From IMG/VR virus record IMGVR_UViG_3300021962_000028, positions 94,623 through 158,622 of that record: a stretch of 64,000 nucleotides of DNA, one strand, 5' to 3'. The DNA comes from a virus. Under the pieces are notes generated by a model, which saw nothing but the letters and a program-made list of their open reading frames with translations, ran no database searches and had not been told where the DNA came from. This document shows positions 50,218 through 52,410 of this stretch, one piece after another (the first letter of the stretch is position 1; each line of letters opens with the position of its first letter). The position numbers were made by a program, and so were the translations under genes.

Positions 50218-50591
50218 AATATATTGTTTCCTAATAAATACCAAAATTTTCCGAAAATTTATTTTTAGAATTCCACCCTTCCATATAAACAAGGGTCCAT
50301 TTTTGGAAAAAAATTGCGCAAACTTCATTTAAGGGATTACCCCCCCTTTTGGGACTGACAAAACGTCATATATGGGGGGGATACGGAGGGGGGGAGGGGG
50401 TACACCCCCCCATAGGGAGGGGGCATAGGGGGTATGCCAAACTTTACCCCCCTGTCAAGATGACAATACCAAATAAAGTTATCAACATAGGGGTGTTTAT
50501 AACTTCCCCCTGACAATGTGACTGTGTATAACTTTATTTGTTTATTCCAAATAGTATTTGTATCTTCGTAGACATTTAAATTTATTCCCCT

Positions 50592-51017
50592 ATGTATTTT
50601 GGTCCTGTATATAATCTTACTAAAGAACAACGTGATGAGTGTAAAGTCAAACAGAAGGATTATGCCAAGAAGGTAACCAAGATGATTAAGAACCGTGAGT
50701 ATACAGTGGGGAATGACTGTGAGAGAATCACCTTCCGTATTGTCAGTGTTCTCCCTGCTCGATACAAATATGATGTCAATGAATATCGTCTCAATATAGA
50801 GATAACTAAGGTGGAACATTCATATAGAAATGGGGATTGGAGTAACCGTACCCCATACAAGGATGAGAGAGTACGTAAGTATCTTATGAATAGATACAAA
50901 GATTGGATTGAAGGTGAACTTGGGGGTTTCCTAAACATCTTTGGATTTGGTAGACGTTACAATAGTAATGGTGCAACAATTTATCTTGAGACCCCCAAAA
51001 TAATTAACCGTAGATAA
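50592..51017 (+). CDS. Basic hypothetical protein inside the origin-like locus
   Basis: ORF track; TATCTTCG upstream. Confidence 0.65.
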   Translation: MYFGPVYNLTKEQRDECKVKQKDYAKKVTKMIKNREYTVGNDCERITFRIVSVLPARYKYDVNEYRLNIEITKVEHSYRNGDWSNRTPYKDERVRKYLMNRYKDWIEGELGGFLNIFGFGRRYNSNGATIYLETPKIINRR

Positions 51018-51150
51018 TTTGGTAGTGTCAAATATTATCACTACCTTTGTAGTGTTGTTATAGGGGAGACCCTAGCAAAGGGTTCGACTCTTCAGTCGCA
51101 GAGGGTAGACTCCGACCTACCTTATATTTTTTTTATAAGGGTCCCCACAT

Positions 51151-51480
51151 TTATTCTATGTGTGCCGTGTTGTCGTGTAGGTGAGAAGCCACTAATGATA
51201 TGGCGTTAGACTTAATAGTATTGACCAATACTTCCCCCATATTAAGTGGGAGATTGTGTGTGGCCATTACATATCCTATTAGATTATTTAAATCCATTGA
51301 ACTAATGGTGATAATATCCTGAGGGACCTTCCCCTCCTTACGTGTACTATTAGTTCGGATGATTCCGAGAGCTAATCCCCCATCTTTACCATAGTATCTT
51401 ACAGTACAATCCCCATTAATACAGAATGTCCTTGGGGTTAAATCACTTAAAAAGTCTGTCATTGTGTCAAATATTATCAT
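51151..51480 (-). CDS. Hypothetical protein inside the origin-like locus
   Basis: ORF track. Confidence 0.55.
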   Translation of the reverse strand: MIIFDTMTDFLSDLTPRTFCINGDCTVRYYGKDGGLALGIIRTNSTRKEGKVPQDIITISSMDLNNLIGYVMATHNLPLNMGEVLVNTIKSNAISLVASHLHDNTAHIE

Positions 51481-52410
51481 AAGTATACAGTGGGGTACAA
51501 TAAAGTACAGTTATTAACATAATAAATTGTTGATAACTTTTTTTCCACATTGGTCCTGACAGTCTGTCAGAGGGGATTGTTGATAACTTTTTATTAAAAA
51601 TAAGTGTTAAAAAATTTGGATTTGTCAAAATGTCAGTCACGCTTTCGCTAAGGGATAGTCCCTTCACGGGGTTTTGGTCCCCACTCTGTATACACTCTCC
51701 CCCACAATTTACCACCACTATCCTTGCTGGTCATACTGTAAAGACCACTTTTCCCCCTCTGACGGTACTAAAAACAAAGGTTTTTTAGGTATATGTGAAC
51801 TCCAGAGAAAAATAGAAGTAATGGTACAGTAGCGGTGGGAACACGTAGTGTGTTAGGATTCTACCTCAACGGACCCTCGTTAGAGGGGAATAATATCACA
51901 TATAATAGACCATATTAGTCCCCTTCGTAGTGACTATTCATAGACAGATAACTTAGTGGTAGAAAGTGGGGATTATATCTAATAACATATAGTTTTATAC
52001 CGTAGGTATCTTTTATATGTTATCTCATATAATCCCTTCGTACCTCATCCTGTACTCTATAAATGTTCAGGTTATTCCCTTGTTCAGTGTAACTGAACAT
52101 CATCTTATACTGAACACAATCTAAGAGTATTATATCTGTCCCTCACATAGTCACCTCATATATGGGGGACACAGTAAAATGGGGGGATTTTACCGTATGG
52201 TAATAATCTGATGGTAACTAAGGGATTTATATAGTAATATTACTGAACGGGAATATACATTACAGTAATGTGGATTACGATAAATGGAATGATGAACTAA
52301 GGAATAAAGATTCTAATGGAACGGAACGTAGTGTAGTGGAATGGTCACGACAGTGAAGAATCGGAATGACTTAGTTCATTGTTTCATTTATTTTCATTAT
52401 ATTTATTAAT

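Follow-up and report, generated by a model that had tools for sequence, protein, structure and literature searches.

The locus described here spans 2.2 kb of a viral DNA stretch, the window, which comprises the last 64 kb of a 158,622-bp contig from IMG/VR (CheckV completeness 53%). Coordinates are window positions unless the contig is named. The phage encodes a tail sheath, a major head protein, a portal, and a B-family DNA polymerase whose nearest cultured homologue is only 24% identical. One of the phage proteins contains a sorting domain of the type IX secretion system (T9SS), which points to a Bacteroidota host; within this phylum, Flavobacteriia are likely candidates. Two complete relatives, G004 and G005, have a length of 321-322 kb each. 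In the original prediction, the locus had been interpreted as a chromosome-like bidirectional origin of replication that uses host DnaA plus a second, dyad-binding protein. As detailed below, it is a real, conserved, multi-site nucleoprotein region. To our knowledge, the start of replication and the timing of early transcription in giant phages are mostly unknown, and nothing has been mapped for phages of Bacteroidota. With two site families, a unique GC-rich array and a fixed-length core, the locus is a compact and strongly conserved target; identifying the proteins that bind to it would name the master regulator or the initiator of a widespread freshwater phage family.

Genes and repeated sites at the locus

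The features of the locus are compiled in Table 1. It lies at a switch of the coding strand, which is real, but the plus-strand block to the right covers only about 8 kb within the window. Two clusters of sites, A and B, flank the convergent genes P0001 and P0002, and each cluster is situated between divergently oriented genes. All sites named in the original prediction are present, and its description of a bipartite locus with two distinct families of iterated sites is correct.

Table 1. Coordinates of genes, sites and conserved elements at the locus (ORF, open reading frame)
Feature	Position	Strand	Description
First gene of leftward block	49468..50217	-	likely start ATG 50217 (MGKFIITEE...)
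A/T-rich promoter-proximal region of leftward block	50218..50329		conserved; AAATTTTCGGAAAATTTTGG-type repeats; by alignment, same blocks in L003 and G005
Outer composite	50333..50368		G/C inverted repeat GGGATTACCCCCCC, 9 nt, one-mismatch dyad TGACAAAACGTCA
GC-rich element	50370..50452		runs of 5-7 G or C split by TAT/TGTA-type steps
Cluster A	50453..50534		dyad 50453, box 50476 (+), box 50494 (-), one-mismatch dyad 50511, box 50523 (-)
P0001	50592..51017	+	141 aa, no assigned function
Convergent intergenic region	51018..51150		16-mer-bearing hairpin (51025-51040) and terminator-like hairpin, then T run
P0002	51151..51462	-	103 aa, no assigned function; counted from ATG 51462
Cluster B	51457..51635		dyad 51457 over start codon, 16-mer 51464, box 51509 (+), box 51528 (-), strict DnaA-consensus nine-mer 51541, dyad 51557, box 51578 (-), A/T-rich stretch, dyad 51623
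Conserved non-coding core	51623..51888		266 bp, fixed spacing; holds invariant 19-mer TCCTAACACACTACGTGTT (minus-strand reading)
Rest of ORF-free region	51889..52410		block conservation to ~52170, more variable after
First gene of rightward block	52411..52776	+	MKYLITES...
DnaA-like nine-mers	50479, 50494, 50523, 51511, 51528, 51541, 51578		
Exact TGWCA-N3-TGWCA dyads	50453, 51457, 51557, 51623		
One-mismatch dyads	50356, 50511		
16-mer copies	51025, 51464		

The first family consists of DnaA-like nine-mers, six of which sit within a longer box; the exception is TTTTCCACA at 51541. The 12-bp form of this box, AAGTTATNNACA, occurs six times in the contig (1.5 copies expected), five times at the locus, and the site at 51511 matches the shorter AGTTATNNACA only. 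The second family is formed by dyads of the type TGWCA-N3-TGWCA, which are 13 bp long, have mixed orientation and are irregularly spaced (12-52 bp). Six exact copies exist in the contig compared with 0.9 expected; four belong to the locus, and the remaining two are found 31 bp apart in one other intergenic region. For both families, the clustering is far beyond chance. Contig-wide counts thus support the predicted concentration of boxes and dyads, but not an enrichment of strict DnaA boxes: the consensus TTWTNCACA has 21 copies versus 28 expected, and two of these (50523 and 51541) are at the locus. If one mismatch to TTATCCACA is allowed, the locus becomes the densest 1.3-kb window of the contig, with five sites versus a maximum of three to four per shuffle (20 shuffles).

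The boxes vary at consensus positions 5-7, and most have an A at position 6, where Escherichia coli DnaA needs C6. Several orthologous boxes in relatives are perfect copies of TTATCCACA, others read CAACA, TAACA or GAACA, and L008 has CCCCA in three boxes at once.

Relatives were found via the left gene, via homologues of the 51151 protein, and via the invariant 19-mer of the non-coding region; a blastn search of the locus against a phage collection gave no match. At least eight related lineages keep the locus, and the two-cluster layout recurs at a DNA divergence of 15-30%. Clusters A and B are direct repeats. The order box, dyad, box, inverted box, dyad is kept in both clusters of the closer lineages, for cluster A in L002, L007 and L012. 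We read the sites as functional because order and spacing are conserved across relatives. Within cluster B, the 17-mer ATTGTTGATAACTTTTT is exactly repeated with copies 50 bp apart. This cluster has a mean column identity of 80% (5 lineages); its pairwise identity to L007, L008 and L012 is 80-87%, compared with 72-85% for the neighbouring genes, and four of the five aligned lineages, as well as G005, retain the strict nine-mer at 51541. Taken together, the non-coding parts share 78-87% identity with the window, versus 72-85% for the two enclosed genes. The number of boxes per locus is 4-6 in the long-form lineages and ranges across lineages from 6 down to 0-1. The subclade of G004 and G005 keeps the core, the dyads and the GC-rich element but only 0-3 boxes; there are no boxes between its first two dyads, which are themselves only 55 bp apart.

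On the outer side of cluster A, positions 50373-50452 are the most GC-rich 80 bp of the contig (67.5% GC versus 32% for the contig; top 2e-5 of windows). Eight of the 102 contig runs of at least five G or C fall into a single 150-bp window (~50328-50478), which spans the GC-rich element and its neighbours. Relatives keep the element, but G and C runs are swapped between the strands; since the runs swap, the duplex rather than one strand seems to matter. The adjacent outer composite is nearly invariant among six aligned relatives and is mirrored at 51623-51662, so that a G/C inverted repeat plus a dyad, in mirror orientation, occurs at both outer edges. As a separate observation, a direct repeat of TCATATATGGGGG brackets the locus (50365-50377 and 52155-52167, 1790 bp apart), both copies being located in conserved blocks.

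On the outer side of cluster B, 930 bp up to the next gene (51481-52410) are ORF-free and conserved, which is the longest conserved non-coding stretch seen in this tightly packed contig. Its 266-bp core is indel-free in four of five lineages, and L012 has offsetting gaps; the distance from the first dyad to the invariant 19-mer is 222-223 nt in all 17 loci. A hidden gene was ruled out, as all six frames contain stops and substitutions lack a three-base periodicity. An Rfam search (gathering threshold, also E≤10) returned only tRNAs and noise, and no RNA structure was supported on either strand: the consensus fold of 11 lineages contained 10-16 pairs, of which at most one is covarying, at about -8 kcal/mol over 285 columns. 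Because there is no codon signal, no Rfam match and no fold, we read the core as a DNA-level element of fixed geometry, neither a gene nor a structured RNA.

A possible control hub with dyads as candidate operators

The interpretation which we favour, if only tentatively, is that of a control hub with several operators at divergent promoters, in which the dyads would serve a small phage regulon as its operators. The locus would then be a conserved cis-acting region at which two gene blocks of a myophage of about 300 kb infecting Bacteroidota diverge. It would contain two paralogous clusters, each at a divergent promoter region, with the GC-rich element outside on one side and the core on the other. 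The dyads may bind a phage-specific transcription factor encoded elsewhere in the genome, and the AAGTTATNNACA boxes a second factor, i.e. a phage protein or, less likely, host DnaA in an accessory role, which would be active only at the hub.

This reading is supported by the strong clustering of both site families, by the order of sites retained in relatives, and by non-coding parts that match or exceed the flanking genes in conservation (78-87% versus 72-85%). Both clusters, moreover, are placed between genes of divergent orientation, and the family has its own polB and DnaB-like helicase but no DnaA in the contigs searched. Further evidence comes from the position of the dyads relative to genes. 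The dyad at 51457 covers the ATG of the 51151 gene and directly follows TAATATTTG, with TTATTG 21 nt further upstream. The ATG of a peptidase-like gene in G004 is covered by a dyad in the same way, immediately behind TATCTTTG, which is of the TAnnTTTG type (Bacteroidota -7 type). In this arrangement, which is typical of operators, a dyad would extend over both the start codon and the promoter-proximal TTTG of genes of the leaderless type. The divergent intergenic region upstream of a clpB/clpC-like AAA+ gene (contig 72772-72973) contains the two exact dyads 31 bp apart, and in both G004 and G005 dnaK is preceded by one dyad at a distance of about 100 nt. All intergenic exact dyads outside the locus are at gene starts. 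Some dyads thus cover gene starts or core promoter elements deduced from consensus motifs, and dyads recur at other promoters; the boxes are confined to the locus. A scan for TTTG-N17-22-TAnnTTTG found no clean match in either cluster.

Two additional observations concern these sites. The region at contig 72772-72973, about 21.7 kb before the window start, also holds the AATATTATCA motif of the 16-mer. A full-length DnaK (Hsp70) is encoded at position 76,658 of G004 and 256,484 of G005, and no copy was detected in the contig of the window.

As the dyads also precede chaperone genes of the phage, they probably shut off or time a small regulon. Their presence at promoters of chaperone genes and across start codons suggests that the binder is a transcription factor and not a second initiator. 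This factor is probably phage-encoded, because dyads are not enriched in the Bacteroidota metagenome-assembled genome (MAG) G009, which may not be the host (9 copies versus 14 for a control pattern), and none is located at its dnaK. What is observed are the sites, their clustering and conservation, and where they lie with respect to genes; binding, the direction of regulation and any role in replication are inferred.

The products of the 50592 and 51151 genes, P0001 and P0002, had been named as potential binders. This is unlikely, because the proteins are not kept across the family together with the sites. Both are absent from the G004/G005, L019 and L025 lineages; L019 and L025 keep boxes and dyads nonetheless, and G004 and G005 carry unrelated genes instead; for the genes at this place in G005, no remote homology to P0001 or P0002 was detected.

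Several points weigh against a control hub. Neither site family could be assigned a DNA-binding protein, the two proteins between the clusters lack a known fold and are lost in lineages that retain the sites, and a search of the contig (53% complete) for HTH_3 domains found none. The fixed 266-bp core and the strand-swapping GC-rich array exceed the needs of ordinary operators; they look like a larger nucleoprotein assembly, which would also fit an origin. The putative regulon comprises few dyads, four outside the locus in three genomes, plus two chance-like intragenic copies. Finally, promoters were deduced from Bacteroidota consensus motifs only, and over the contig as a whole TAnnTTTG has no sharply defined position upstream of genes.

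The closest regulatory parallel is the immunity region of phage lambda, where the operator triplets OL and OR flank cI-rex at divergent promoters. In both cases, two clusters of about three related operators are about 1-2 kb apart and flank a small gene set, promoters (putative at our locus) point both away from and towards the enclosed genes, and part of the sites coincide with core promoter elements. Unlike in lambda, no repressor gene was identified at the locus, two interleaved site families replace one, the GC-rich array and the fixed-length core are added, and neither an integrase nor any other sign of lysogeny is seen in the phage. Domain searches for tyrosine integrase and for ParB detected neither in the contig, G004 or G005.

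Replication origin and further alternatives

It is possible, though somewhat doubtful, that the locus is an origin of phage replication, perhaps in addition to a promoter hub. In this case, an initiation complex would form on the boxes and dyads, and transcripts that start at the cluster promoters and run through the GC-rich element or the core would assist in opening or priming the DNA, with or without the participation of host DnaA. In agreement with this, the locus is a dense, mixed-orientation array of several site families in which spacing is conserved and changes are substitutions rather than indels, a pattern described for enterobacterial oriC. It includes the longest conserved non-coding stretch of the contig and is the densest window of relaxed DnaA boxes; some orthologous boxes are perfect, and the 51541 nine-mer is kept. 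Moreover, the G-run array could form R-loops or quadruplexes, transcription diverges at the locus, and the cumulative GC skew of the contig has its minimum there.

The skew minimum of this incomplete contig, which ends 12 kb beyond the locus, is a gene-strand effect, because the skew of the coding strand is about the same whichever direction the genes point: left of the locus it is 0.18 for minus-strand and 0.14 for plus-strand genes, and to the right the small difference is opposite to that expected for an origin. The original prediction had accepted in advance that a skew inflection elsewhere in a whole genome would speak against it. In G005, the locus (206-208 kb) is about 150 kb away from the global minimum, which was found at 56.9 kb. 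The minimum marks the right-hand edge of a stretch of about 30 kb (~33-63 kb) with large plus-strand genes that is missing from the contig of the window, and the plus-strand genes of this stretch have a negative skew at ~35-57 kb. At the locus, G005 shows a shallow local dip coinciding with a 15-kb block of opposite-strand genes; the skew of G004 has several inflections, and its dip at the locus amounts to ~60 units compared with a total range of ~3900. Skew therefore follows gene strand, the locus being a minor local dip in both complete relatives, and for this reason it is unusable for calling origins in these phage genomes. Two blocks of G005 oppose the usual coding-strand trend and shape the genome-wide curve: the very large plus-strand ORFs at 35-57 kb (L030-L031) have a strongly negative skew, and the minus-strand block at 145-155 kb (L036) a strongly positive one.

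Further observations are at odds with an origin. No outstanding A/T-rich unwinding stretch is found next to the clusters: within 50200-52450, the least GC-rich 40 bp (10%) occur at 52378, which is about 740 bp away from cluster B and ranks only at the 0.4th percentile of the contig, and the A/T-rich stretch at 51590-51620 varies in length between relatives. Box number varies from 6 to 0-1 among lineages, and if a conserved host protein recognized these boxes, the joint change of three of them to CCCCA in L008 would not be expected. Neither a skew switch at the site nor a constant set of boxes in relatives, as would be typical of an oriC-type origin, was observed. No initiator-like gene is adjacent; the replication genes of the family, polB and a DnaB-like helicase, are ~92-127 kb away from the locus in G005. 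In addition, the dyads recur at chaperone genes. A search for DnaA-type (C-terminal) domains in G000 and three related contigs, with the complete genomes outside its range, found none.

The use of host DnaA is doubtful. The density of relaxed boxes is in its favour, but the variation at positions 5-7 with A at position 6 and the loss of boxes in G004 and G005 are not, so that the case as judged from the sites appears weak. In the MAG G009 (again, possibly not the host), no box cluster exists within 10 kb of dnaA. With the skew argument removed and the DnaA argument weakened, a chromosome-like bidirectional origin is not established.

A more elaborate version appears unlikely. Here, the locus would be the origin of a family of uncultured Bacteroidota myophages with genomes of ~320 kb, composed of DnaA-like boxes, TGWCA dyads, G/C-run inverted repeats and the 266-bp core of fixed geometry; transcription from its divergent promoters would trigger firing, and through the dyad factor the start of replication would be linked to the chaperone regulon. 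We know of no origin defined for any jumbo phage of Bacteroidota.

Known origins resemble the locus in part. At oriF and oriG of phage T4 and the ori of the lactococcal phage c2, a promoter and a downstream non-coding transcript prime replication. Like T4, the phage studied here appears to be a large virulent phage with its own B-family polymerase, and putative promoters are followed by conserved non-coding DNA; however, an R-loop or primer at the locus is putative, and the G-rich strand differs among relatives. In bipartite chromosomal origins, i.e. oriC1/oriC2 of Helicobacter pylori and the box clusters on both sides of dnaA in Bacillus subtilis (PMC5043019, PMC8235120), two clusters of DnaA-box-like nine-mers are likewise separated by genes and contain both orientations and close pairs. 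In contrast, our locus encloses genes other than dnaA, most boxes deviate at position 6, there is no clear unwinding element, relatives lose boxes, and the complete genomes have no skew switch at the site. Iteron origins such as P1 oriR, pSC101 and RK2 join DnaA boxes with sites for their own initiator (PMC4980987). They share with the locus host-type boxes plus a second repeated site in non-coding DNA next to small genes. The locus differs in having 13-bp dyads of mixed orientation, 12-52 bp apart, rather than regular tandem iterons of 19-22 bp; no Rep-like gene is present, and the dyads also occur at unrelated promoters.

Still less probable is another DNA-processing site, either a packaging or terminal region, or a hot spot of recombination or cassette exchange at which the enclosed genes are swapped via the repeated clusters. 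From lineage to lineage, the genes between the clusters indeed change and the flanks stay, A and B repeat each other in direct orientation, the TCATATATGGGGG repeat at 50365 and 52155 brackets the locus, and a GIY-YIG endonuclease-like gene is placed beside the core in two lineages; but no recombinase or terminase gene is adjacent, no integrase was found in the complete relatives, and contig ends do not fall at the locus; termini are unreadable from assemblies. A 127-bp end repeat of G005 was rejected as a terminus, since it looks like an assembler overlap and is uninformative on physical ends.

The least probable alternative is that the core and the GC-rich element function at the RNA level, as a long leader or as a non-coding transcript, and the clusters are simply its promoters: the 930-bp region is conserved without a codon signal, and the pairing of one small hairpin survives by G-U changes, though only for the plus strand, but Rfam gave no match even at E up to 10, the 11-lineage fold had 10-16 pairs with at most one covarying, and G/C runs swapping strands do not suit a strand-specific RNA.

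Flanking and enclosed genes

The ORF of the left gene extends to 50328, but this longer form is probably not translated. Similarity of the protein to its relatives begins at about residue 25-28 of the long ORF, and the aligned upstream DNA of L003 and G005 has an ATG at the matching place, preceded by conserved A/T-rich non-coding sequence; for these reasons, ATG 50217 is the most likely start. Among the proteins near the locus, PHROGs and Pfam searches matched YceI and PPK2 only, and the enclosed genes had no match.

P0001 has only 8 matches among 1.8 billion representative proteins. Its structural model reaches a mean confidence (pLDDT) of 85.6; Foldseek found no match at E≤0.001, and the best VIA-align hit (Z 5.1, RbfA-like) was not informative. 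P0002 has 18 homologues, and because most of them consist of 103 aa, the gene is taken to start at ATG 51462, within the dyad. Its model has a pLDDT of 70.5, and Foldseek gave no match at E≤0.001. Sequence profiles of the PDB returned nothing for either protein.

Just outside the core, G005 (L039:5069-5617) and L012 (2640-3170) encode a protein of 176-182 aa with a GIY-YIG-like N-terminus and a C-terminal HTH_3 domain; the two are 45% identical to each other, and the window has no copy. As a helix-turn-helix (HTH) regulator, this candidate was rejected, since the N-terminus IYxLxCP...KPVYVG resembles GIY-YIG; the gene looks like a free-standing homing-endonuclease-like gene.

In the convergent intergenic region, GATAATATTTGACA at the 51025 position is kept in L002 and L012 and has one or two changes in L007 and L008. 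At 51040-51150, this region has a conserved stretch with GGTTCGACTC, which resembles a tRNA T-arm, and a small hairpin; ARAGORN calls no tRNA. A sequence similar to a tRNA 3'-half, GGTTCGAGTCCTGTC, occurs in the variable part of the ORF-free region of L007 (1000-1100). Residues 29-84 and 112-131 of P0001 match 8-10 repeated stretches in the metagenome proteins P0028 (2585 aa) and P0030 (717 aa); P0001 may be a free copy of this repeat module.

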